Part shown: in pieces, positions 5,523 to 29,114 of the stretch
Numbering within the stretch: the first letter of the stretch is position 1
How the letters are laid out: each line of letters begins with the position of its first letter
Assembly (NCBI GenBank): GCA_965214705.1
Contig: CBDCCI010000002.1
Span: forward strand, 2,560,001-2,624,000
Direction: 5' to 3'
Origin: Alphaproteobacteria bacterium
GTDB lineage: Bacteria; Pseudomonadota; Alphaproteobacteria; UBA828
Length of the DNA stretch: 64,000 nucleotides
Program-made: the position numbers and the translations under genes
Notes under the pieces: model-generated
Seen by the model: the letters and a program-made list of their open reading frames with translations, nothing else
The model's database searches: none
What the model was told of the DNA's origin: nothing

Positions 5523-5957
5523 ATGAAGCGCGTCCACATCAACATCACGGTCACCGACCTCGACTGCTCGGTCGGGTTCTACACGACCCTCTTCGGCACC
5601 GGGCCGACTGTGCTGAAGCAGGACTACGCCAAGTGGATGCTGGAGGATCCCCGCCTCAACCTCTCGATCTCGACGCGCTGCGGCAACCCCGGCGTCGACC
5701 ATCTCGGCATCCAGACGGAGAGTGCTGACGAGCTGGACACGCTTGCCGGGCGGCTCAAGGCGGCGGGCGAGCGCCACGTCGATCAGGCGGACGCGAACTG
5801 CTGCTACGCGCGCGGTGACAAGACCTGGGTGTTCGATCCCGAAGGCGTGGCGTGGGAGACTTTCCACACCACCGGCGCCATCACGCACTACGGCGAGGAC
5901 CTGGGGCCCGAGACCGGCGCGGCGGACGAGCCGGCCCAGGACGAGCAGGCCGCGTAA
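5523..5957 (+). CDS. ArsI/CadI family VOC (glyoxalase-like) metalloenzyme
   Basis: MKRVHI...YAKWMLEDPRLN...DHLGIQ...CCYA...WVFDPEGVAWETF with vicinal CC. Confidence 0.85.
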   Translation: MKRVHINITVTDLDCSVGFYTTLFGTGPTVLKQDYAKWMLEDPRLNLSISTRCGNPGVDHLGIQTESADELDTLAGRLKAAGERHVDQADANCCYARGDKTWVFDPEGVAWETFHTTGAITHYGEDLGPETGAADEPAQDEQAA

Positions 5958-12995: not shown

Positions 12996-14237
12996 TCACG
13001 GTTTCCCCCTGTGGGTCGGCGGCAGCGCCGGCGGGCCGCGCGTCGAGCGGGGCTCATGGCGGCGGCGGATTTCGCGGACGAGGCGCATGACGCCGCCGCA
13101 GTGGGGGCAGGCCACGGGCGCGGTGCCGATCTCGGGCTCTTCGTCGGGCTCGGCCCGAGCGCCGTCCACGCTTCCCTCGGGGGCGGCGCAGCCGAGGGCG
13201 CCGAGAGCCTGGCGTGCTCTCTCCAGCGTGCTGGCGCGGCAGCCGTTGGCGAGGATGCCGAAGTAGCGAATGCGGTGCATGCCGTCCGGCAGGACGTGCC
13301 TCAGGAAGCGGCGGATGAACTCGTCGGCGCTCACGGTGGCGATGCCGTAGCGCGGCTTTCTCTGCCCCGGCGCCTTGGGCTTTCGGTGGCGGAAGGAGAC
13401 CGTCTCGCCGTCGAAGGAGACGATGCGGCTGTCGGAGATGGCGATCCTGTGCGTGTAGTGCGAGAGGTACCGGAAGACCTGCTCAGGCCCGCGGAAGGGC
13501 CGCTTGGCGTAGACCACCCAGTCCCTGGCCCGGGCGGCGGCAAGCGTGGCGTGGAACTCGCCGGGATTGGCGAGGTGGGCGAGGGTGCCGTGGAACTCCA
13601 GGTCCCCCCGGCCGTGGGCGCGGGCGAGCTCCTTGAGGAAGAGGCGGCGGAACAGGCTGCCGAGGACCTTGACGGGGGCGAGGAAGGTGGTGCTCCCCGT
13701 CTTCCACTCGCCACTGTCTACGTCGAAGCCCGCGTTGGGCACGACCACGTGCAGGTGCGGGTGGAAGCGGAGCTTCTGATCCCAGGTATGGAGGACCGCG
13801 GTGCCGCCGATGCGCATGCCGCCGTGGCGGGGATCGGCGGCGATGGTGCGCAGGGTCTCGGCGACGGCCCGGAAGAGGATGTCGAACACCACCCTGCGGT
13901 TGCAGAAGGCAATGGCGGCAACCTCCTTGGGCAGGGTGAAGACCACATGGAAGTAGGGCACCGGCAGGATGTCCCCGGCGCGCTCCTCGCTCCAGAGGTT
14001 GGCGGCGAGACCCTGGCAGGTGGGGCAGTGGCGGTTGCGGCAGGAGTTGAAGAGCGGATGCTCGCGCCCGCAGCCCTCGCAGGCGTACATGTGGCCGCCG
14101 AGCACGGCGGTGCGGCACGCCTCGATGGCGCCCATGACCTTGAGCCGGGCGGCGTCGATGCGCCCTTTGTGGCGCTCACGGAAAGCGGCGCCGGCGCGGC
14201 GGAAGATCTCCGCCACGCCCGCGCGTTCGGCCTCCAC
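12996..14237 (-). CDS. IS91 family (HUH/Y2) transposase
   Basis: Zn-binding CRT..CEGC..SCRNRHCPTC, HUH motif HPHLH, YxxxY motif YLSHY. Confidence 0.93.
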   Translation of the reverse strand: MEAERAGVAEIFRRAGAAFRERHKGRIDAARLKVMGAIEACRTAVLGGHMYACEGCGREHPLFNSCRNRHCPTCQGLAANLWSEERAGDILPVPYFHVVFTLPKEVAAIAFCNRRVVFDILFRAVAETLRTIAADPRHGGMRIGGTAVLHTWDQKLRFHPHLHVVVPNAGFDVDSGEWKTGSTTFLAPVKVLGSLFRRLFLKELARAHGRGDLEFHGTLAHLANPGEFHATLAAARARDWVVYAKRPFRGPEQVFRYLSHYTHRIAISDSRIVSFDGETVSFRHRKPKAPGQRKPRYGIATVSADEFIRRFLRHVLPDGMHRIRYFGILANGCRASTLERARQALGALGCAAPEGSVDGARAEPDEEPEIGTAPVACPHCGGVMRLVREIRRRHEPRSTRGPPALPPTHRGKP

Positions 14238-14243
14238 GCGCCG

Positions 14244-15122
14244 TCAGTTGCGCAACGCTGCGAAGCCTGAGATCGGGTGGTCGAGGCCCTCGAACATCTT
14301 GCCGGTGACGCGGGCGTAGTGACGGGTCGTGTTCGCGCTTCGATGGCCGAGCATGTCCCGGATCACCTCGATATCGCCGCCGCGCTCGAGGAGATGGGTC
14401 GCCGCCGAATGGCGCAGGCAATGGAAGGTGTAGCTGCGGTCGAGCTCGGCAATGTCGCGCGCCCTCCTGAAGGCGGCCTGCAAGGTCTCCGTTGCGATGG
14501 GCCTGTCGAGCGAGACGCCGTAGAAGAGCCAGTTCGTCGGACGCGGCCAGATGTTCCTGTAGTAGACGCGCAAGTAGTGGATGACGATGTCCGGCAACGG
14601 TGCCATTCTCTCGGTGCCGCCTTTGCCGGAGGGGATGTGCAGCAGCTTCTTCTCCGACAGGATGTCGCCGACCTTGATGGCCAAGGTCTCGGAGATGCGG
14701 AGCCCGCCGCCATAGCCGGTGACAATGGCAGCACGGTGGCGGAGGTCGGGTGTCGCAAGGATGAGGTGCTCGACCTCCTGCTCCGACATGTAGCGCGGCA
14801 GCTTGCCGGGCTTCTTGCGGGAGCGCAGGCCGGCGACATGGTCAGGCCAGCCGAGTGTGTCGATGTAGAGGAAGTTCAGCGCGGCGAAGGAGACGTTGGT
14901 CGTGCCCGGACTGAGCCCCTTGTCGATCCGCCCCAGGTACCACTGGCGCACCTGCTCGGCGTCGAGCTCGTCCGGCGAGGCGTCGTAGTACCTGGCCAGG
15001 TTCTTGATCTCGCAGATGTAGGCCTTGGACGTGCTCGCGGCCAGATTGGCGATGCGGAGCTGCTCCTCCATGCGCTGGCGAAGAGGGGTGACGGTGTTCG
15101 TGTCGCACGCGGTCCCGGTCAT
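14244..15122 (-). CDS. Tyrosine recombinase/integrase
   Basis: GLRISE, HCLRHS, LGH and TRHY catalytic motifs; ATG at 15122 after GGGAGA. Confidence 0.92.
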   Translation of the reverse strand: MTGTACDTNTVTPLRQRMEEQLRIANLAASTSKAYICEIKNLARYYDASPDELDAEQVRQWYLGRIDKGLSPGTTNVSFAALNFLYIDTLGWPDHVAGLRSRKKPGKLPRYMSEQEVEHLILATPDLRHRAAIVTGYGGGLRISETLAIKVGDILSEKKLLHIPSGKGGTERMAPLPDIVIHYLRVYYRNIWPRPTNWLFYGVSLDRPIATETLQAAFRRARDIAELDRSYTFHCLRHSAATHLLERGGDIEVIRDMLGHRSANTTRHYARVTGKMFEGLDHPISGFAALRN

Positions 15123-15637
15123 TATCGATCTCCCTGGATCGCGACGGCGCGCCGCCGGACCGATCCGGCGACGGTCCGTCGCAGGGGTCGATGCTAACCA
15201 CTGGTGATCGGGAGGCTGCTGGGGATCCGCCACCCGACGGGCGGAGCGCCACTGACGCAACCGGGAAGCGAACGCACAGAACAAACGGCACCCGCGACGC
15301 CTCGGAAATGAATGAACTCTACGCCGCTAACTCCGCGTAGCGGCTTCGTTCAAGAGAGTTTTGAGCGGGGGACGACCGTAGAGGAGGTGGCCGAGCGCCA
15401 CGGGGTACCCCCTCGTCGGCTTTCGTACTGGCGCAAGCTGGCTCGCAAGGGCGAGCTCGTGGTTCCCCCGGCGGCGCCGAGCGAGGGACCGTTTGCCACC
15501 GTTGAGGTGGAGTCTGCCCCCGCACCTGCCCATGTGGGCTCGGTCTCGATCGAGGCACGCGGCGTGACGGTACGCCTCGACGGCGACGTGAGCACGGTGC
15601 GCATCACGTCGATCGCCTCGGCGTTGCGAGCGCTTCG

Positions 15638-15991
15638 ATGATCGTTCCGGGCTCCGGCCTGCGGATCGTGGTGGCGACGCGGCCGGTTGATTTCAGGAAG
15701 CAGCACGACGGGCTTGCTGCGATCGTCGCGAGCGATCTCGGTCTGGACCCCTATTCGGGGCTTGTCGTGGTGTTTCGCTGCAAGCGCGCGGACCGGATCA
15801 AGGTGCTGTGGTGGGACGGCACGGGCTTGGTGTTGGCGCACAAGCGTCTGGAGGAGAGCCGCTTTGCCTGGCCCACGGTTCGCGACGGCACGATGCGTCT
15901 GTCGCGCGCGCAATTCGAGGCGCTGTTCGAGGGCCTGGACTGGCGCCGGGTGTGGAGCCGGCGGGCGCGCAAGCCGCTTGCGGCGGCGTGA
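15638..15991 (+). CDS. tnpB: IS66 accessory protein TnpB
   Basis: PVDFRK..DGL, KRADRIKVLWWDGTG, KRLE motifs. Confidence 0.93.
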   Translation: MIVPGSGLRIVVATRPVDFRKQHDGLAAIVASDLGLDPYSGLVVVFRCKRADRIKVLWWDGTGLVLAHKRLEESRFAWPTVRDGTMRLSRAQFEALFEGLDWRRVWSRRARKPLAAA

Positions 15992-16065
15992 TGCAGGGGC
16001 GGCACAGCCCACTTTTGCGCTCTCTCTTCTTTACTAAGTAGCTGATTCCGTGATAGTATTCTGCG

Positions 16066-17721
16066 ATGGAGACGGGCACCGGCAACGTCGATCTCGGCGC
16101 GCTCGCACGCCCCTACCGGGCGCTGTTCGAGGCGCAGCAGGCGGCTCTTGAGGCGCTTCGCGCCGAGAATGCGGCGCTGAGCGCTCGCAACCGCCGTCTC
16201 GAGGAGCAAGACCCGGAAGCGGCGGTCGAGACCCTGCGCGCCAAGGTCGCCTCGCTCACCGAGCAGAACCAGCGTCTTGAACATCTGCTCAACGAGTTGC
16301 GCCGGGCGATGTTCGGGAAGAAGTCCGAGAAGCTCCATCCCGACCAGCTCCTGCTCGCCTTCGAGGAGCTCGAAGGCGCGCTTGCCGAGGCCGAGGAAGA
16401 GACCCCGGCGAGCACGACGCGGCCGCCGCGCGCGAAGCGCCCCGCTGCGGAACGCAACATCGGTCATCTGCCGGCCCACTTGCCGCGCACCTACGAGGTT
16501 GTCGAGCCCGAGAGCAGGCTGTGCCCGTGCGGCTGCGGTGAGATGGTGAAGATCGGCGAGGACCGCACCGAGCGGCTCAACATCGTTCCGGCGCAACTTC
16601 AGGTCATCGTCACGATCCGGCCGAAGTACGCCTGCCGCAGTTGCGAGGAAGGCGTCACCCAGGCGCCGGCGCCGGCGCACCTCATCGAGGGCGGGCTGCC
16701 CACCGAGGGCATGCTCGCCCACGTGCTGGTGTCGAAGTTCGCGGACCACCTCCCGCTGTACCGGCAATCGCAGATCTACGCCCGCTCGGGCATCGAGCTG
16801 CACCGTTCGACGCTGGCCGAGTGGGTCGGCAAGGCGTCGTTCCACCTGCGGCCCGTGTTCGACTGCCTGAAGGGGGAGTTGAAGACGTCGAGCAACCTCG
16901 GCCTGGACGAGACCACGGTTCGGGTTCTCGACCCGGGCCGGGGCAAGACCAAGACCGGCTACATGTGGACGATGGCGCGCGACGAGCGGGCATGGTGCGG
17001 GGCCGATCCGCCGGGCGTGGTGTACGATTATGCGCCCAGCCGCAGCGGCAAGCATGGCGAGAAGCTGCTCGCGGGCTTCAAGGGAACGGTGCAGGTCGAC
17101 GGCTATTCCGGCCACAACCGGCTGCGCCGGCCGGATCGATCCGGAGGAGCACTGACGCTCGCGGCGTGCTGGGTCCACGCCAGGCGCGGCCTCAAGGAGG
17201 TGTTCGACAGCAACGCCTCGCCGATCGCCAAGGCCGGTCTGGAGCGCATCGCTCAGCTCTACAGGATCGAAGATAAGATCCGGGGCGAGCCGCCGGCGAC
17301 GCGCCAGTTCGTTCGATGGACCGAGTCCGCGCCGCTGGTGAACGCCTTCGGCGTCTGGCTCGACGAGCAGCGCTCGCTGGTCTCGCCGCGCTCGCGCCTC
17401 GGCGAGAAGCTGACCTACATCGCCAACCAGTGGGAGGGGTTGCTGGAGTTCCTGTACGACGGGCGCGTCGAGATGGACAGCAACTTCGTCGAGAACCGAA
17501 TCCGTCCGATCAAACTCACGGCCAAGAACGCGTTGTTCGCCGGCCACGACGAAGGCGCTATCTCTTGGGGCCGGATCGCTTCGCTGATCGAGACCTGCAA
17601 GATGAATGGGGTCGAGCCCTACGCCTGGCTCAAGAGCACGCTGGAGAAGATCGCCGCCGGCCACCCCCAATCCAAAATCGACGAACTCCTGCCCTGGAAC
17701 TTCGACCCGGCGTCAAGCTGA
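16066..17721 (+). CDS. tnpC: IS66 transposase TnpC
   Basis: FGKKSE, CPCG, SKFADHLPLYRQ, DET, VDGY, CWVHARR, DSNFVENRIR, LLPWN. Confidence 0.95.
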   Translation: METGTGNVDLGALARPYRALFEAQQAALEALRAENAALSARNRRLEEQDPEAAVETLRAKVASLTEQNQRLEHLLNELRRAMFGKKSEKLHPDQLLLAFEELEGALAEAEEETPASTTRPPRAKRPAAERNIGHLPAHLPRTYEVVEPESRLCPCGCGEMVKIGEDRTERLNIVPAQLQVIVTIRPKYACRSCEEGVTQAPAPAHLIEGGLPTEGMLAHVLVSKFADHLPLYRQSQIYARSGIELHRSTLAEWVGKASFHLRPVFDCLKGELKTSSNLGLDETTVRVLDPGRGKTKTGYMWTMARDERAWCGADPPGVVYDYAPSRSGKHGEKLLAGFKGTVQVDGYSGHNRLRRPDRSGGALTLAACWVHARRGLKEVFDSNASPIAKAGLERIAQLYRIEDKIRGEPPATRQFVRWTESAPLVNAFGVWLDEQRSLVSPRSRLGEKLTYIANQWEGLLEFLYDGRVEMDSNFVENRIRPIKLTAKNALFAGHDEGAISWGRIASLIETCKMNGVEPYAWLKSTLEKIAAGHPQSKIDELLPWNFDPASS

Positions 17722-20653: not shown

Positions 20654-20727
20654 GCGGGTGTAGCTCAATGGTAGAGCAGAAGCTTCCCAAGCTTACGACG
20701 AGGGTTCGATTCCCTTCACCCGCTCCA
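20654..20727 (+). tRNA. tRNA-Gly (anticodon CCC)
   Basis: Acceptor stem GCGGGTG/CACCCGC, D arm GCTCAATGGTAGAGC, anticodon loop TTCCCAA, GGTTCGATTCC, encoded CCA. Confidence 0.96.
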
Positions 20728-22047: not shown

Positions 22048-22132
22048 GACGGCCTGCGCGTCGGCTCGTCGAGGCCGCGACATTTGGTTGACCACGCCCA
22101 CCGGTTTGTGTTTCATGCGCGCACAGGACGCG

Positions 22133-22211
22133 CTCATCCAGAGCGGTGGAGGGACAGGCCCTTCGAAGCCGCGGCAACCGCCAAGAGCGGTGCCAATGCC
22201 TGATCGATGAG
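22133..22211 (+). promoter_or_regulatory. SAM-I-like riboswitch lacking an evident P4 helix
   Basis: P1 CTCATC/GATGAG; ATCCAGAG; kink-turn P2 GCGGTGGAGGGACAGGCCCTTCGAAGCCGC; P3 GGCAACCG...CGGTGCC; TTGACC-N17-TTTCAT upstream (22088-22116). Confidence 0.85.
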
Positions 22212-22279
22212 TTAGCCGGAGGCGGAACTCCGCTCTCGGCGCTCGTAGAGCGCGTAGGAGACGAGAGGAGTACCGCCAG

Positions 22280-22345
22280 ATGATGACTCTGTGCGCCCAA
22301 CCATTCGCCCCTCCGGGGGCCGCGTCCTGTTGCGTCTGTACCTAG
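22280..22345 (+). CDS. Putative leader peptide MMTLCAQPFAPPGAASCCVCT
   Basis: SD AGAGGAG 9 nt upstream; 21 codons, 4 Cys and 2 Met; lies between riboswitch and osmC-like gene. Confidence 0.5.
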   Translation: MMTLCAQPFAPPGAASCCVCT

Positions 22346-22472
22346 GCTACCGCTCGTAGCCGATCCCACCGGGTGAGACCGATGGAGACCTCGCGGTCCT
22401 CCAGGCCTCTGGCATCGCCGCCGACCGGGGCGGTGTCAACGCCCGACAACCATGCCCACAAGGAGAAGATTC

Positions 22473-23036
22473 ATGTCCGATACCAGCGAAACTCCCGGCC
22501 TTAACGGTGTCAACGTCGAGCACCTGCTCGGCGCCCGCAATATCCTGGGCGACCAGCCCGAAGCCGGCCAGTTCACGTGGCGCGTTACCAACGAGTGGCT
22601 CCACGGCACCCACAGCAAGACGCAAGTGGAAGGCTATTTCGGCCTCGGCCAGGAGAACGACCACAAGGCGAGCTACTCGTTCGAGTCCGATCATCCCCTG
22701 GTGTTCGCGGCCGAGGACAACGCCGCCACGCCGGTGGAAATCGTGCTCACGGGCCTCGCGAGCTGCCTGACCGCGGGCGTCGCCGCGGTCGCACAGGTGC
22801 GGGAGATCCAGCTGCGTTCGGTCAAGGCCACGGTCGAAGGCGACATGGACATCGCCGGCATCCTGGGCGCCGATCCCGAAATCCGGAACGGGTTCAGCAA
22901 TGTCAAGGTCACCTACGATATCGACGCCGACGCCACGCCCGACGAGATCCAGGCGCTGGTCGCCCAGTCGCAAAAACGCTCGGCGGTCTACGATATCCTG
23001 ACCAACCCGACGAACGTCACCGTCGAGGTCAAGTAA
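22473..23036 (+). CDS. OsmC family protein
   Basis: NGVNVE, SDHPLVF..DNAATPVE..LASCLT, RSAVYDILTNPT; single Cys; SD AGGAG. Confidence 0.85.
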   Translation: MSDTSETPGLNGVNVEHLLGARNILGDQPEAGQFTWRVTNEWLHGTHSKTQVEGYFGLGQENDHKASYSFESDHPLVFAAEDNAATPVEIVLTGLASCLTAGVAAVAQVREIQLRSVKATVEGDMDIAGILGADPEIRNGFSNVKVTYDIDADATPDEIQALVAQSQKRSAVYDILTNPTNVTVEVK

Positions 23037-23044
23037 CCGCCGTC

Positions 23045-24292
23045 ATGCAGACGACGACCGTCGTGGTCGGGGCCGGTCATGCCGGCCTCGCCGTGAGCCA
23101 TTGCCTCGCCGCGCGCGGCATCGATCACGTGGTGATCGAGCGCGGCGAGGTGGCTCACACGTGGCGGACGGAGCGCTGGGAGTCGCTCCGCCTGCTGACG
23201 CCGAACTGGCAGACGCAGGTGCCCGGCCTCGCCTACGACGGCGACGATCCCGACGGCTTCATGACCATGGCCGAGGTGGTGGCGTTCATCGAGCGCTACG
23301 CCCGGCTCGTGGACCCGCCGCTCGAGACCGGCACCACCGTCGAAGCCCTGACCAAGAACGGCGCCGGCTACGAGGTGGCGACCGACCGGGGCGTCTGGCG
23401 CTGCGCATGCGTGGTGCTCGCCTCCGGCGGCTTCAACGTTCCGAAGATTCCGGCGGTCGGGGCGGCGCTCTCCGGCACCATCGAGTCGGTGACGCCGATG
23501 GACTACACGCGGCCCTCGGACTTGCCGGAGGGCGGCGTGCTGGTGGTCGGCGCGTCCGCCACCGGTGTCCAGATCGCGGACGAGGTGCACCGCTCGGGCC
23601 GCCCCGTGACGATCGCGGTGGGCGAGCACGTGCGCATGCCGCGCACCTATCGCGGCAAGGACATCCTGTGGTGGATGGATCGCACCGGGCTGCACGACGA
23701 GCGCTACGACGAGGTGGACGACATCGTGCGCGCGCGCCGGGTTCCCTCGCCGCAGCTCGTGGGCACGCCGGAACGCTCCACGCTGAATCTCAACGACCTC
23801 ACCGATCAGGGGGTGCGCCTGGTGGGCCTGCTGGCCGGGTTCTCGGACGGCAAGGCGCAGTTCTCGGGCTCGCTCCGCAACAAGTGCAACCTGGCGGACC
23901 TGAAGCAGGGCCGGCTGCTCGACACCATCGACGAATGGGTCGACGAGAACGGGCTCGATGACGAATTCGAGTCGCCGCATCGTTTCGAGCCGACGCGGGT
24001 GGAGGAGTCGCCGCCGCTCACCCTCGACCTCGCCCGCGAGGGGATTCGGACGGTGATCTGGGCGACCGGATACGAGCCCGACCATTCCTGGGTCGATCTT
24101 CCCGTGTTCGACCGCAAGGGGCGGCTGCGCCATGACGGCGGCGTGGTGACGGAGGCGCCGGGCGTCTACCGCATCGGCCTCAACTTCCTGCGCCGGCGCA
24201 AGTCAAGCTTCATCCACGGCACCGCCGACGATGCCCGCGATCTCACCGACCATTTGGCCGCTCAGATCGGCGCGGACTCGGCCCGCCACTGA
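23045..24292 (+). CDS. Flavin-containing monooxygenase-like FAD/NAD(P)-dependent oxidoreductase
   Basis: GAGHAG, WRTERWESLRLLTPNW, VVGASATGVQIA, VIWATGY. Confidence 0.88.
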   Translation: MQTTTVVVGAGHAGLAVSHCLAARGIDHVVIERGEVAHTWRTERWESLRLLTPNWQTQVPGLAYDGDDPDGFMTMAEVVAFIERYARLVDPPLETGTTVEALTKNGAGYEVATDRGVWRCACVVLASGGFNVPKIPAVGAALSGTIESVTPMDYTRPSDLPEGGVLVVGASATGVQIADEVHRSGRPVTIAVGEHVRMPRTYRGKDILWWMDRTGLHDERYDEVDDIVRARRVPSPQLVGTPERSTLNLNDLTDQGVRLVGLLAGFSDGKAQFSGSLRNKCNLADLKQGRLLDTIDEWVDENGLDDEFESPHRFEPTRVEESPPLTLDLAREGIRTVIWATGYEPDHSWVDLPVFDRKGRLRHDGGVVTEAPGVYRIGLNFLRRRKSSFIHGTADDARDLTDHLAAQIGADSARH

Positions 24293-25204: not shown

Positions 25205-27407
25205 CAGGGCGAATTTGTCCAAGCCTGATTTTTGAGTTCTGCGCTACGAGTTGACCTTGGGTCTGGTCAGCGCGCGCCAACCCTGCTATGGATTGAGGCG
25301 ACTGGATTCGCGGTGTTCTGCTGCGGATCGGCTTCGAGCAGGGGGACGGTTTCTACGGTGGATCTTTCCGAGGTCGATGTCGCTGCTGTCCGGCCGGAGG
25401 ACGAGGCCCGGTTCCGCGCGCTGATGGAGGGGCATCACTACCTGGGTGCGTCTGCGAAGGTGGGGGCGACGGCGTGGTACGTCGCCCATCGGCGCGGCGA
25501 GTGGCTGGCGCTGGCCGTGTTTTCGGCTGCGGCGCGCAAGTGCCGGGCGCGGGACGAGTGGATCGGCTGGGACTTCCGCACGCAGCACGGGCGGCTGCAT
25601 CTGATCGCGAACAACGCGCGCTTCCTGATCCTGCCGGGACGGGGTGTTCCGAACCTCGGCTCGCGGGTGCTGGGGCTTTGCGCGCGGCGCTTGGCGCGCG
25701 ACTGGCCGGCCCGCTTCGGCCACCCCGTGCTGATGCTGGAAACATTCGTGGACGCGGCGAGGTTCCGGGGCACGGTCTACCGGGCGGCTGGATGGCTGGC
25801 GGTCGGCCAGACCCGCGGCTTCCGGCGCCACCGCTCGGGCTATGTCGCCGGCTCGACGCCGAAGCTTGTGCTGCTGCGCCCCCTGGTTCCCGACGCCTGC
25901 CGCCGGCTGTCCGCTGCCGGGCTGGATCGGGAGTTGTGGAAGAAAGGAGTTCCGAGAACCATGATCAGCGCCGCTCAGCAAGAGTCGCTCTACGCCTACT
26001 TCAAGGACATCGACGACCCCCGCACGCGCAAGGGACGGCGGCATTCGCTGCCCAGCGTGCTCGCGCTTGCGAGTGGCGCGACGCTCTGCGGCATGCGAGG
26101 CTGGAAGGCCATGTCCGAGTGGGTCGACGATCTCGGCGAGAAGGCGCTGGCCCGCTTCGGCGTGCGGCTGCGCGACGGGGTGCGCCGGCCGCCTTCGATG
26201 TCGACCATCCGCAATGTGGTGATCCGGGTGGACCCGGACCAGTTGGACGAGGCGTTGCGCAAGTGGCAGGAGGCCCACGGCTCAGGCGACGCGGCGCTTG
26301 CCATCGACGGCAAGACCCTGAGGGGGGCCATCGACGAGGACGGGACCCAGGCTCATGTCATGAGCGCGGTCGGGCACGAGACCAAGGCCACGCTCGCCCA
26401 AAAAAACTTCTCCTGAAAGTCGGGGCCGACGAGGAGACAAAGCGCACCAACGAGATCGGCACCGTGACGGCGCTGGTGGACCTGATCCCGAACATCGCGG
26501 GCAAGACGGTCACGACGGACGCGCTGCTAACCCAGCGCAAGTTCGCCCGCTACCTGCTCGACCGGGGCGCGCACTTCATGTTCATCGTGAAAGGGAACCA
26601 GAAGACCATGCGGGACGATGTGACGCTGCTCTTCGAAGAGGCGCCGGAGCGTGAGCCTGACTTCGAGGAGGAGGCCGCGCTGTCGCACGGACGCATCGAG
26701 CAGCGGGCAATCTGGACGAGCACGGAGTTGAACGGCTTTCTCGACTTCCCGGGCGTCGGCCAGGTCTTCATGATCGAGCGCTCCCGCCAGGACAAGAAGA
26801 CCGGCGAGACCGGCACCGAGACCGCCTACGGGATCTCCAGCCACACGCCCGGCACGGCCAACGCGCAGAGCCTGCTCGCCCTCAACCGCGGCCACTGGTG
26901 CATCGAGAACAGCTCGCACCACTGCCTCGACTGGACCTGGGACGAGGACCGCAGCCGCATACGCACAGGCTTCGGCCCCGAGAACATGACCCGCCTGCGG
27001 CGCTTCGCCATCGGCCTGATCAAGGGCCGGGGGCTCGAGGTCGCCTCGACCGTGCGCAGGCTCGCCCGCAACGTCCGCGCCGTCCTCGACTTCCTGAAAA
27101 TGACCGGGAACACCCAGCCGAGGACCGCAAAGCGCGCCGCGCCGGCCTGAACCCCGGCGCCCGGCAAGCCGGGCGCAAAGATCGTACCTGCCCTCGCTCC
27201 CGACCACGCCGGTGGCGCGATCCATCATGTCGGGGCACCGCCAAATCGCGACGGCACCGCCCGCACCGCCCACACGGTAATGCCAGAACCCTCTGACCGA
27301 ACCGGATGCTCGGCCAGACCCCGCCGCAAACCCCGCAACAAAGCCGATCCGCACAACCCGTGGCCAGAACTCAACTGCCTACCAGCCGCTTGGACAAATT
27401 TGCCCTG
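25205..27407 (+). mobile_element. ISAs1 family element
   Basis: TIRs CAGGGC(G/A)AATTTGTCCAAGC (19/20); 10-bp target duplication CGCTTGGAGG (25195-25204 / 27408-27417). Confidence 0.93.
25358..27150 (+). CDS. DUF4338 (DruA-like)-ISAs1 transposase fusion, -1 frameshift at about 26401-26407
   Basis: N-term HHYLG..RDEWIGW..NNARFLILP..ETFVD; then DPR..GRRH, AIDGKTLRG; second frame NEI, DALLTQ, VKGNQ, HGRIE, HWCIEN; slippery A-AAA-AAC. Confidence 0.85.
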
Positions 27408-27515: not shown

Positions 27516-29114
27516 ATGGGGATCAGGATCACGCGACGGCAGGCGCTGAAGACCGGCGCCGCAGGCCTAGTGCTCACCTCGCCGATCGGCATCGCACCCA
27601 AGTACATCCGTCCCGCGCGGGCGGCGGGCTTGGCGCCTGGGATGACCGGCGGCCCCACGGGCTTCCCGGGGGCCGAGCGCTATCAGTACAACGAGGACAT
27701 GCCCGAAGGGCGGGCCATCGAAGGCATCAAGAAGCTCAAGGCAGAGGGCAAGGCGCCTGAGAAGTTGAGCTTCCTGCTCTTCTCGGGAGCGATCGGCCAG
27801 TTCACCAAGCCCTTCCCGGAGGGCGCGCCGACCGTCCACGACGTGTGGAAGGAAGAGACCGGGATCGAGGTCGAGTTCAGCGGCTCTGGCGAAGTGGAGA
27901 TGGTGACCAAGGTTCTCCAGGACATCACCACCCAGGCCGGCGTCTACGACATCTATTCCGCGCTGTGGAGCAATGTCGGCGACCTCGTCGCCACCGGCGG
28001 CATCGTCAATCTGGACCCGTACGTCGAGCAGTATAAGCCCGACTGGAACGACCCCGAGCGCGGGGCACCGACTGCGGAGATCGCCGATCTTCTCTACAAG
28101 TATGCGGGCTCCTACTACACGATCTCCTTCGACGGGGACTTCCAGACCTGGGTCTACCGCAAGGACCTGTTCGAGGACCCCGAGAACGTGAAGGAGTTCA
28201 GCGACCGCTACGGCTGGGAGCTGGGCAAGCCGCAGACCTGGGAACACGCTGACAATATCGCCGAGTTCTTCGCCGAGAAGGGCATGAACGGAACCGTCAA
28301 TCTGTTCAGCCCGTTCTGGGGTCTGGGCACCTACTTCATGCGCTACGTGGGGCAGGACAATCCCAACTTCCAGTACTTCGACGACAACGGAAACCCGCTG
28401 CTCGAGACGGAGCTCGGCATCAAGACCGCCGAGGAGCACGTGAGAAGCCGGCAGTGGGCCAACAAGGATGCGCTCAGCTGGACCTGGTCCGAGGCTTACG
28501 GGAGCATGGCCCAAGGCACCGGCGTGATGATGAGCACCTATACCAACCTGCGGAAGTTCAACGACCGGATGAACGCCGACGGAACGCCCGCCACGCCTGC
28601 GTCGGGCAAGCTCGGCTCGTTCCTCCCGGTGGGCAATTGGTTCGGAGACGACCTGATCCGCCGCAGCGTGCTCTACCTCAACATCAACGCCGAGGTCTCG
28701 GCGCAGAGCGAGTATCCGGAGGCCGCCTATCTCTTCCTCCAGTGGGCGAGTTGCTCGCGCATCTTCAGCTGGATGTCGGGCAATCCGGCCGGCTACTTCG
28801 ATCCGTTCCAGAAGGCCAACTTCGACGATCCGTTGGTGCAGCAGACCTACCACAAGGACCACGTGGAGGTGATTCAGGAGACCATCAAGCGCTCCGCACC
28901 GACGATCAACTTCGCCGGCCAGTCCGCATTCGACAACGGCCTGGACGAGGAGTTGCAGCGCGCGCTGATCGGCGACATCACGCCCGAAGAGGCCATGAAG
29001 AACGCCTCCAAGAAATGGCGGAAGATCATCAAGAAGAAGGGCGAGGACAAGATGATCGAGGCCATCCGCGCGAGCAACAAGGCAGCCTGGCCGACCATCG
29101 TCGACAAGGCTTAG
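27516..29114 (+). CDS. Carbohydrate-type ABC substrate-binding protein, Tat-exported
   Basis: TRRQALK signal; YRKDLF..P.TW motif; SD GGGAGG. Confidence 0.85.
   Translation: MGIRITRRQALKTGAAGLVLTSPIGIAPKYIRPARAAGLAPGMTGGPTGFPGAERYQYNEDMPEGRAIEGIKKLKAEGKAPEKLSFLLFSGAIGQFTKPFPEGAPTVHDVWKEETGIEVEFSGSGEVEMVTKVLQDITTQAGVYDIYSALWSNVGDLVATGGIVNLDPYVEQYKPDWNDPERGAPTAEIADLLYKYAGSYYTISFDGDFQTWVYRKDLFEDPENVKEFSDRYGWELGKPQTWEHADNIAEFFAEKGMNGTVNLFSPFWGLGTYFMRYVGQDNPNFQYFDDNGNPLLETELGIKTAEEHVRSRQWANKDALSWTWSEAYGSMAQGTGVMMSTYTNLRKFNDRMNADGTPATPASGKLGSFLPVGNWFGDDLIRRSVLYLNINAEVSAQSEYPEAAYLFLQWASCSRIFSWMSGNPAGYFDPFQKANFDDPLVQQTYHKDHVEVIQETIKRSAPTINFAGQSAFDNGLDEELQRALIGDITPEEAMKNASKKWRKIIKKKGEDKMIEAIRASNKAAWPTIVDKA

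Follow-up and report, generated by a model that had tools for sequence, protein, structure and literature searches.

Riboswitches and ribosome-stalling attenuators are normally alternatives. Here we describe a locus in a 64,000 nt stretch of DNA from an alphaproteobacterium of the UBA828 lineage (assembly GCA_965214705.1, contig CBDCCI010000002.1, positions 2,560,001 to 2,624,000, forward strand; hereafter the window), in which an S-adenosylmethionine (SAM) riboswitch of class SAM-I is followed by a short leader open reading frame (ORF) with clustered Cys codons, and then by an osmC-like gene and a flavin monooxygenase (FMO)-like gene. The closest described systems each share part of this layout. 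The translational SAM-I riboswitch of Xanthomonas reads two inputs, SAM and uncharged initiator tRNA (PMC7270179), and our locus resembles it in its aptamer core and in a predicted output that sequesters a Shine-Dalgarno (SD) sequence; however, the Xanthomonas switch has a P4 helix and controls the gene start directly, whereas the SD hidden here would be that of the leader ORF, which lies some 200 nt upstream of the first gene. The mycobacterial attenuator Ms5788A (bioRxiv 10.1101/834739) and actinobacterial Cys leaders (PMC1262725) likewise place a short ORF upstream of sulfur-related genes, with Cys codons towards its 3' end, and our locus shares with them the expectation that ribosome occupancy relieves repression. 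Unlike the present SD-led ORF behind a SAM switch, those attenuators are described as leaderless and lacking a riboswitch, and whereas the Cys tract of Ms5788A pairs with the SD of the next gene, the helix found in relatives of our locus leaves the osmC SD out and no NCBIfam leader family matches. In M. smegmatis, mutation of the start codon leaves the Cys attenuator permanently off (bioRxiv 10.1101/834739), and this is the state that a SAM-bound switch would impose here. The SAM-II riboswitch of S. meliloti metA (PMC9373788) also controls an SD and AUG other than the gene's start, although AUG1 there shares the gene's reading frame and is not used, and there is no separate ORF coding for Cys. 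Finally, an osmC gene of SAR11, perhaps of the one-Cys subfamily seen here, lies 3' of SAM switches and is strongly induced by sulfur limitation (PMC5069961); it differs in the classes of its switches (SAM-V and SAM-II) and in its neighbours (ordL and bhmT).

The feature in the window is real, and is a new arrangement of known parts. We propose, tentatively and as an idea that falls a little short of probable when taken as a whole, that it derives from a serial gate in which a riboswitch licenses initiation on a stalling attenuator (low SAM together with low Cys-tRNA), that the two modules have been lost separately in Acidimicrobiia and after transfer to alphaproteobacteria, and that the gate controls a new OsmC2-flavoprotein sulfur-recovery enzyme, itself present in several phyla. 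The literature searched, which left most subscription papers outside, yielded no description of such a serial two-input gate, of a riboswitch acting on a stalling leader, or of this gene pair, although it does describe Cys attenuators, dual-input SAM switches and SAM switches acting at a distance. The comparison below draws on 82 loci, designated by L numbers: a single scan of GTDB species genomes gave 580 confirmed OsmC matches, of which the best 80 were kept, and two plasmid-collection records were added. The features of the window locus, in order, are:

22088-22116, + strand: candidate sigma-70-type promoter (-35 TTGACC, 17-nt spacer, weak -10 TTTCAT).
22131-22213, + strand: SAM-I aptamer without P4 (RF00162, 68.9 bits against a gathering score of 44.4).
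22128-22255, + strand: predicted ON fold, in which the 5' strand 22128-22135 pairs with 22248-22255 and excludes P1 (constrained folding).
22215-22225/22230-22240, + strand: predicted ON-fold hairpin holding the anti-SD (constrained folding, pair table and pair counts).
22221-22238/22262-22277, + strand: predicted OFF fold, a sequestering stem over the leader SD, with inner hairpin 22239-22244/22248-22253 (folding).
22264-22270, + strand: SD of the leader ORF, AGAGGAG (SD and ATG at the same place in 11/11 osmC leaders).
22280-22345, + strand: leader ORF, 21 codons, ending CCVCT, with the Cys cluster in codons 17-20 (22328-22339).
22346-22472, + strand: structured spacer, 127 nt, without a terminator-like site.
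22460-22465, + strand: osmC SD, predicted to be mostly open.
22473-23036, + strand: OsmC-fold protein, 187 aa, single Cys98 (PDB 2opl, E 7.6e-38; fold match TM 0.79).
23045-24292, + strand: FAD/NAD(P)H flavoprotein, 415 aa, with an FMO-like fold and predicted to bind the OsmC dimer.

A preliminary description of this DNA, made from the sequence alone, had placed a promoter at the head of the locus, and the hexamers it named are there, TTGACC at 22088-22093 and TTTCAT at 22111-22116 with 17 nt between them, so placed that the transcript would start near 22123. The -35 is supported by its conserved position (TTGAC lies 47-51 nt 5' of the aptamer's ATC in 13/13 related SAM leaders), but the -10 is weak and a strict consensus scan of the locus returned no promoter. 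The SAM-I core without P4 is borne out more firmly. In the Infernal comparison with the Rfam SAM models which that description had proposed, SAM-I scores best and above its gathering score, and in the cmscan alignment to RF00162 helices P1-P3 and the consensus core letters match while the P4 columns are deleted. P1 is formed by 22133-22138/22206-22211, and the window has CAGG/CCUG complementarity for the L2-J3/4 pseudoknot at 22155-22158/22199-22202; we take these core and pseudoknot positions to be those with a role in SAM binding. No SAM-IV or SAM-I/IV match is listed for the window, overlapping clan matches being suppressed in favour of the best-scoring SAM-I. The sequence supports identity as SAM-I, with SAM binding and switching as predictions, and as natural P4-less SAM-I variants exist, and can function at lower affinity (PMC12714719), we file the window aptamer as a SAM-I variant.

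Directly 3' of the aptamer there is a conserved platform, then an SD, then an ATG, in all 11 leaders that precede osmC (the window included), with SD and ATG no more than 42 nt 3' of the platform's invariant GAGCGCG. The same arrangement arises in 2-12% of shuffled leaders per sequence, and the 11 leaders are related, not independent. The AGAGGAG and the 21-codon ORF of the preliminary description, with its translation, are as claimed there, and so are the 127-nt spacer, the one-Cys OsmC gene and the FMO-like gene. What it had not seen is that the riboswitch is predicted to aim at the leader ORF's own ribosome site, which would place the two layers in series.

This arrangement was explored by folding, the results being equilibrium predictions with neither pseudoknot nor ligand, in which P1 was forced to represent the OFF state and pairing of the 5' end with GAGCGCG was forced to represent the ON state. 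With P1 forced, a stem covers the leader SD and the spacer that follows it; with the 5' end paired to the invariant GAGCGCG, the SD is freed. The ON and OFF ensembles are no more than 2.5 kcal/mol apart in 10 of 13 leaders (-73.6 versus -75.3 in the window), and opening the leader ribosome site costs 1.2-5.4 kcal/mol more in the OFF state in 10 of the 13 (9.3 OFF versus 3.9 ON in the window). The ON helices, with the structure taken from the window, are 88% paired, and their covariation score of 0.098, against 0.064 for shuffled alignments, is reached by none of 500 shuffles. On these predictions we propose that when SAM is bound P1 would hold the 5' end and a stem would form over the SD and spacer of the leader ORF, so that ribosomes would not load there, and that when SAM is absent the 5' end would pair with 22248-22255, the anti-SD would be trapped in the second hairpin and the leader ORF would be translated; ribosomes on the leader would then permit expression of osmC and the FMO-like gene. 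A SAM-OFF translational riboswitch acting through the leader ORF, whose site would be hidden rather than that of osmC, is moderately likely in our view.

Several observations weigh against this. Just two ON pairs change on both sides, a count not above that of the shuffles (121/500), and the anti-P1 helix has no two-sided change. Constrained folding of the 13 leaders predicts no gating in L004, L016 and the reverse leader of L028. The unconstrained minimum is the ON fold just in L005, L016, L055 and L079, the window itself folding OFF without ligand, and in 6 of the 13 the SD became cheaper, not dearer, to open once P1 was forced. The leader ORF of L016 consists of an ATG and a stop. At that locus (5927-5932) the SD, ATG and immediate stop behind the SAM switch are accompanied by an overlapping GTG-started ORF of 14 codons. 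In the window, positions 22321-22330, inside the leader ORF, are a perfect 10-nt complement of the inferred transcript 5' end (22123-22132), partly kept in L003, L006 and L012, and this pairing could lock the OFF state.

In some alphaproteobacterial relatives the output would be translational coupling. L005 and L006 have a leader stop that overlaps the start of osmC, and as a simulated ribosome advances the osmC site becomes cheaper to open (10.5 down to 0 in L006, 9.9 down to 3.7 in L012), which together predict a simple route from SAM to expression. For the window folding predicts no such route: its osmC site opens at 4.1-4.9 kcal/mol wherever the simulated ribosome sits, and there is no intrinsic terminator in its leader or spacer; the output there would most likely be shielding of the transcript from Rho or from decay. 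The unpaired part of the spacer is rich in C (about 16 C to 5-8 G), a composition compatible with a weak Rho site but no proof of one. For the window we rejected SD-type attenuation of osmC, ribosome position being without effect, and an intrinsic terminator, none being found; we also dropped a duplex between leader and spacer, which appeared when the window and L003 were folded in isolation but failed in context and in the two-sequence consensus.

The comparative set provides the second layer. A flavoprotein gene lies directly 3' of osmC in 81 of the 82 loci, the one exception being a contig end. The SAM-I pattern is found 5' of the pair in 10/82; Rfam, run on 77 of the loci, confirmed these 10, added one opposite-strand SAM-I match in each of L028 and L040, and listed no further riboswitch class 5' of the pair in those 77 (L011, L022, L031, L052 and L061 were scanned by the SAM-I pattern only). 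An uncatalogued Cys-codon leader with a conserved helix occurs in 11/82, and four Acidimicrobiia, L028, L040, L055 and L079, have both the SAM switch and the Cys leader. Set against a general role for this logic, 64/82 loci show neither a SAM switch nor a recognisable Cys leader, and the Rhodobacter and Novosphingobium (plasmid) copies adjoin unrelated regulators. The additional SAM-I elements of L028 (1490-1572, - strand) and L040 (5037-5118, - strand) are divergent from the first and precede an osmC paralogue and metY; these back-to-back leaders also carry SD-led short ORFs ending with one Cys and one Met codon.

The 11 Cys-leader loci were picked by reading upstream sequence. Each carries a short ORF with a block of Met and Cys codons and, immediately 3' of this block, a 12-bp helix in which three pairs show changes on both sides. 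In all 11 the start of the helix lies between -2 and +4 nt relative to the last Cys codon, and its closing end 11-18 nt 3' of the stop; in 3 of them the block holds a single Cys. A simulated ribosome on the last Cys breaks the helix in 4/4 leaders tested, and with the ribosome at the stop the helix at least partly re-forms in 3/4. There is no U-tract 3' of the helix, and the osmC site changes little. A model of the element, searched over 87 sources, found only its 11 training leaders, and neither Rfam 15 nor NCBIfam 20 has an entry that the leader and helix match above threshold; against NCBIfam none of 13 leader peptides matched, whereas that of L036 in the correct frame matched NF042934. Three of the Cys-leader loci without a SAM switch keep a scrap of the platform's 3' half, which suggests that they once had an aptamer and lost it. 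In the form that we take to be ancestral, that of Acidimicrobiia, the ribosome admitted by the switch would also have to stall at Cys (or Met) codons to block the helix, so that expression of the operon would require low levels of both SAM and Cys-tRNA. The tandem SAM and cysteine sensor of the preliminary description is to be sought in the family, where the four complete leaders form a credible serial sensor in which a working Cys layer is likely; for the window copy cysteine sensing is doubtful.

The sulfur context of the gene pair does not depend on the SAM-bearing clade. In L036 (Saccharopolyspora rosea) a leader matching NF042934 (5688-5774, 33.7 bits against a cut-off of 27) precedes osmC, the FMO-like gene and metY, a CysB gene lies directly 5' of the pair in L069, and a metY-family gene is present in 7/82 loci; to these can be added the sulfur-limitation response of SAR11 osmC. 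We regard a link between the pair and sulfur shortage as highly probable, so that the sulfur part of the organosulfur-scavenging system proposed earlier stands, while scavenging is a reasonable suggestion as to its use. The L036 leader is a different Cys-type leader, unrelated to the one above, on the same operon. Other upstream regions have features of their own. L046, L067 and L081 have a divergent upstream gene with metY nearby, and the N-terminus of its product is, we presume, like that of homoserine acetyltransferase. L007-L011, L013 and L014, a clade that has lost both RNA elements, share a DNA motif with the core TGAYCG-N5-TCGG 60-130 nt 5' of osmC; it looks like a transcription-factor site, which may be CymR-like. 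In the Betaproteobacteria L034, L037, L057, L061, L069 and L074, repeated ATAAG/AATATG-rich words stand ahead of the promoter 5' of osmC and are possibly CysB sites, given the cysB directly upstream in L069.

The proteins themselves suggest a two-component enzyme. The OsmC protein has the OsmC/Ohr fold and the first (peroxidatic) Cys, but the second (resolving) Cys is replaced by Ser170, a position assigned from the motif of two-Cys relatives; Cys98 and Ser170 are invariant in 61/61 aligned sequences. It resembles GSU2788 (PDB 2opl) in fold and with 37% sequence likeness. The flavoprotein has Rossmann motifs at residues 9-14 (GAGHAG) and 169-174 (GASATG), a fold similar to 4usq, 4c5o and 8z17 (TM 0.63-0.68), and about 20% sequence likeness to the flavin monooxygenases 4usq, 4a9w and DiatB; it also resembles the MSMEG_0569 family TIGR04046. 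The pair differs from all of these in its one-Cys OsmC and in a flavoprotein below the curated TIGR04046 cut-off (357.1 versus 498.35 bits); the fingerprint of class B / type II flavin monooxygenases, FxGxxxHxxxY, is not found at residues 145-157, which lack its F, G and H and keep Y154 alone. A complex of an OsmC dimer with one flavoprotein was predicted with a score of 0.86, the best of three controls scoring 0.00, against a mark (reached by 116/157 solved and 2/215 mismatched pairs) that applies only roughly here, with our own alignments and two copies of OsmC. The runs agree in at least 96% of contacts, the partner pLDDT is at least 90, and the OsmC interface is enriched in invariant residues (11/22 against 55/187 overall), that of the flavoprotein more weakly (6/20 against 79/415). 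The prediction supports OsmC2-flavoprotein binding; none of the listed PDB matches is titled as an OsmC-flavoprotein complex, and atlas searches returned generic names only.

We suggest that the two products form a two-component OsmC2-flavoprotein enzyme whose synthesis rises under sulfur shortage, and our best guess is that it would oxidise an organosulfur compound and pass the sulfur via Cys98 towards Met/Cys synthesis. This chemistry, taken alone, is a speculative proposal that we would not call probable, and scavenging by oxygenation is similarly doubtful. A possible alternative, somewhat easier to credit though still tentative, is a thiol-independent peroxide or sulfoxide reductase in which the flavoprotein would recycle the one-Cys OsmC; its induction would answer a loss of thiol antioxidants caused by sulfur shortage. 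It would account for the OsmC/Ohr fold, for the likeness of the flavoprotein in fold and family to the bacillithiol disulfide reductase YpdA, for the peroxide resistance conferred by a cluster containing MSMEG_0569 (PMC6039565), and for flavoprotein Cys281, which is kept in 45 of 51 sequences and lies in the docking helix. However, Cys281 is missing from the other 6, neither it nor Cys98 is among the listed complex contacts, and the closest solved relatives of the flavoprotein are monooxygenases. The neighbourhood helps neither chemistry, as no transporter or substrate gene is conserved near the pair in the 82 loci. The only neighbours recurring across lineages are metY and a third FAD-dependent gene (FAD_binding_3) found with the pair in 13/82 loci (L001, L019, L024-L026, L032, L052, L058, L063, L064, L070, L076 and L080), four times with a MaoC-like gene. 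Distant FMO relatives (about 39%) sit with RidA and DUF1028, without OsmC, and in L025, L041 and L076 the flavoprotein gene is in two pieces (a frame change, and an insertion of about 1.6 kb in L076).

A SAM-I riboswitch in alphaproteobacterial DNA is unusual, and would be explained by transfer from Acidimicrobiia. In a tree of joined OsmC and flavoprotein sequences (a quick method, with SH-aLRT support only), the window groups with five alphaproteobacterial loci (support 98). The sister group of this clade (98) consists of five Cys-leader loci, four of them titled Acidimicrobiia, and both are nested in a 25-row, mostly acidimicrobial group. Monophyly of the 12 alphaproteobacterial rows is rejected (p-AU 1.8e-5) in a test on 40 of 83 rows, with the group named after the tree had been seen, and SAM-I without P4 is reported to characterise one group within Actinomycetota (PMC12714719). 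The cassette was probably transferred from Acidimicrobiia, and comparison of the leaders indicates that the Cys module decays after transfer to alphaproteobacteria. Within about 10 kb, window positions 12996-17721, 20654-20724 and 25232-27150 hold a tRNA gene and several ORFs that look transposase- or integrase-like, in keeping with a mobile neighbourhood. A separate Rfam match to Cis90_sRNA (28648-28848, - strand, 87.2 bits), antisense inside a long ORF resembling a solute-binding protein gene, may be coding similarity alone.

It remains to weigh the leader ORF of the window, which could itself be a full two-input sensor in which a stall at CCVC under cysteine shortage is needed for expression after SAM release. 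Its three Cys in four codons are infrequent (0.27% of 145,987 stop-free ORF shuffles, and 11 of 2,701 start-led 20-codon stretches of the window, or 0.3-0.4%, for a pattern chosen post hoc), so that the Cys cluster of the 'Met/Cys-rich' peptide stands; Met-rich it is not, having just two initial Met codons, the second missing in the closest relative, L003. Model R1 of the Cys element aligns its Cys block to the CCVC codons as its best match in the leader (22318-22392, 5.3 bits, E 0.1; nhmmer E 2.6), for a cysS leader of Rhodobacterales two tandem Cys codons have been proposed to be enough (PMC8632094), and a stalled ribosome would lengthen occupancy whatever the output. However, the R1 alignment keeps the Cys block and stop segment while both helix strands are absent, and in folding a ribosome stalled at Cys has the same structural output as one standing at the stop. 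The cluster is also not conserved: among the closest relatives (OsmC identity 87-98%), where leader Cys codons were compared with L003 only, that sister locus has QFDC for CCVC, 7 of the 8 leader changes between the two being non-synonymous; in the SD-led frame L004 has lost CC, and L005, L006 and L012 have no Cys cluster. The proposed check of Cys codons upstream of orthologous pairs finds a Cys-codon leader in 11/82 loci and no Cys cluster in these four alphaproteobacterial relatives. Furthermore, codon 17 lies inside the 10-nt complement to the 5' end and may be kept for that pairing, in-frame Cys codons over 17 leaders number 37 against 30 in the +1 frame, and the window peptide matches no NCBIfam family at E 10. 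We consider a two-input window leader unlikely, and a working Cys layer in this copy equally so. Rather, the window leader ORF is a probable remnant, by sequence, of an acidimicrobial Cys leader without its helix, and the window copy would be a horizontally acquired, partly decayed one with its SAM layer intact and its Cys layer residual or rewired.

A less likely explanation still is that the short ORF is untranslated in context, its SD serving as a standby site for osmC or the switch acting on RNA stability. There is precedent in S. meliloti metA, where the SAM-II-controlled SD is needed and its AUG unused, with the start 74 nt downstream (PMC9373788), and the poor conservation of the peptide among alphaproteobacterial copies and the start-stop of L016 would suit it; but an ATG at proper spacing in 11/11 osmC leaders, the in-frame Cys/Met block at a fixed distance from the helix in 11 relatives, and the stop/start overlap of L005 and L006 argue for translation. 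That the peptide is a substrate of the two enzymes, as had been suggested and as a Cys-rich short ORF adjoining redox enzymes might bring to mind (a RiPP-like system), is very improbable and unsupported, as the enzyme pair is present in 81/82 loci and the Cys leader in a minority, 64/82 having neither RNA element, and the peptides are unconserved and unrelated in sequence (L036 type versus PGSRV type), with no conserved protease or exporter.

Notwithstanding the probable decay of the window copy, the family is one in which a riboswitch and an attenuator appear to be wired in series on one transcript, and as natural versions exist with both, with the riboswitch only and with the leader only, this logic is directly testable by reporters. 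The Cys leader and its helix offer a handle on how Cys leaders without terminators work, a question left open in PMC1262725. Different sulfur regulators converging on the same pair, together with a confident complex prediction, give a lead to the function of an unassigned enzyme whose OsmC component has at least 580 confirmed matches among GTDB species genomes.

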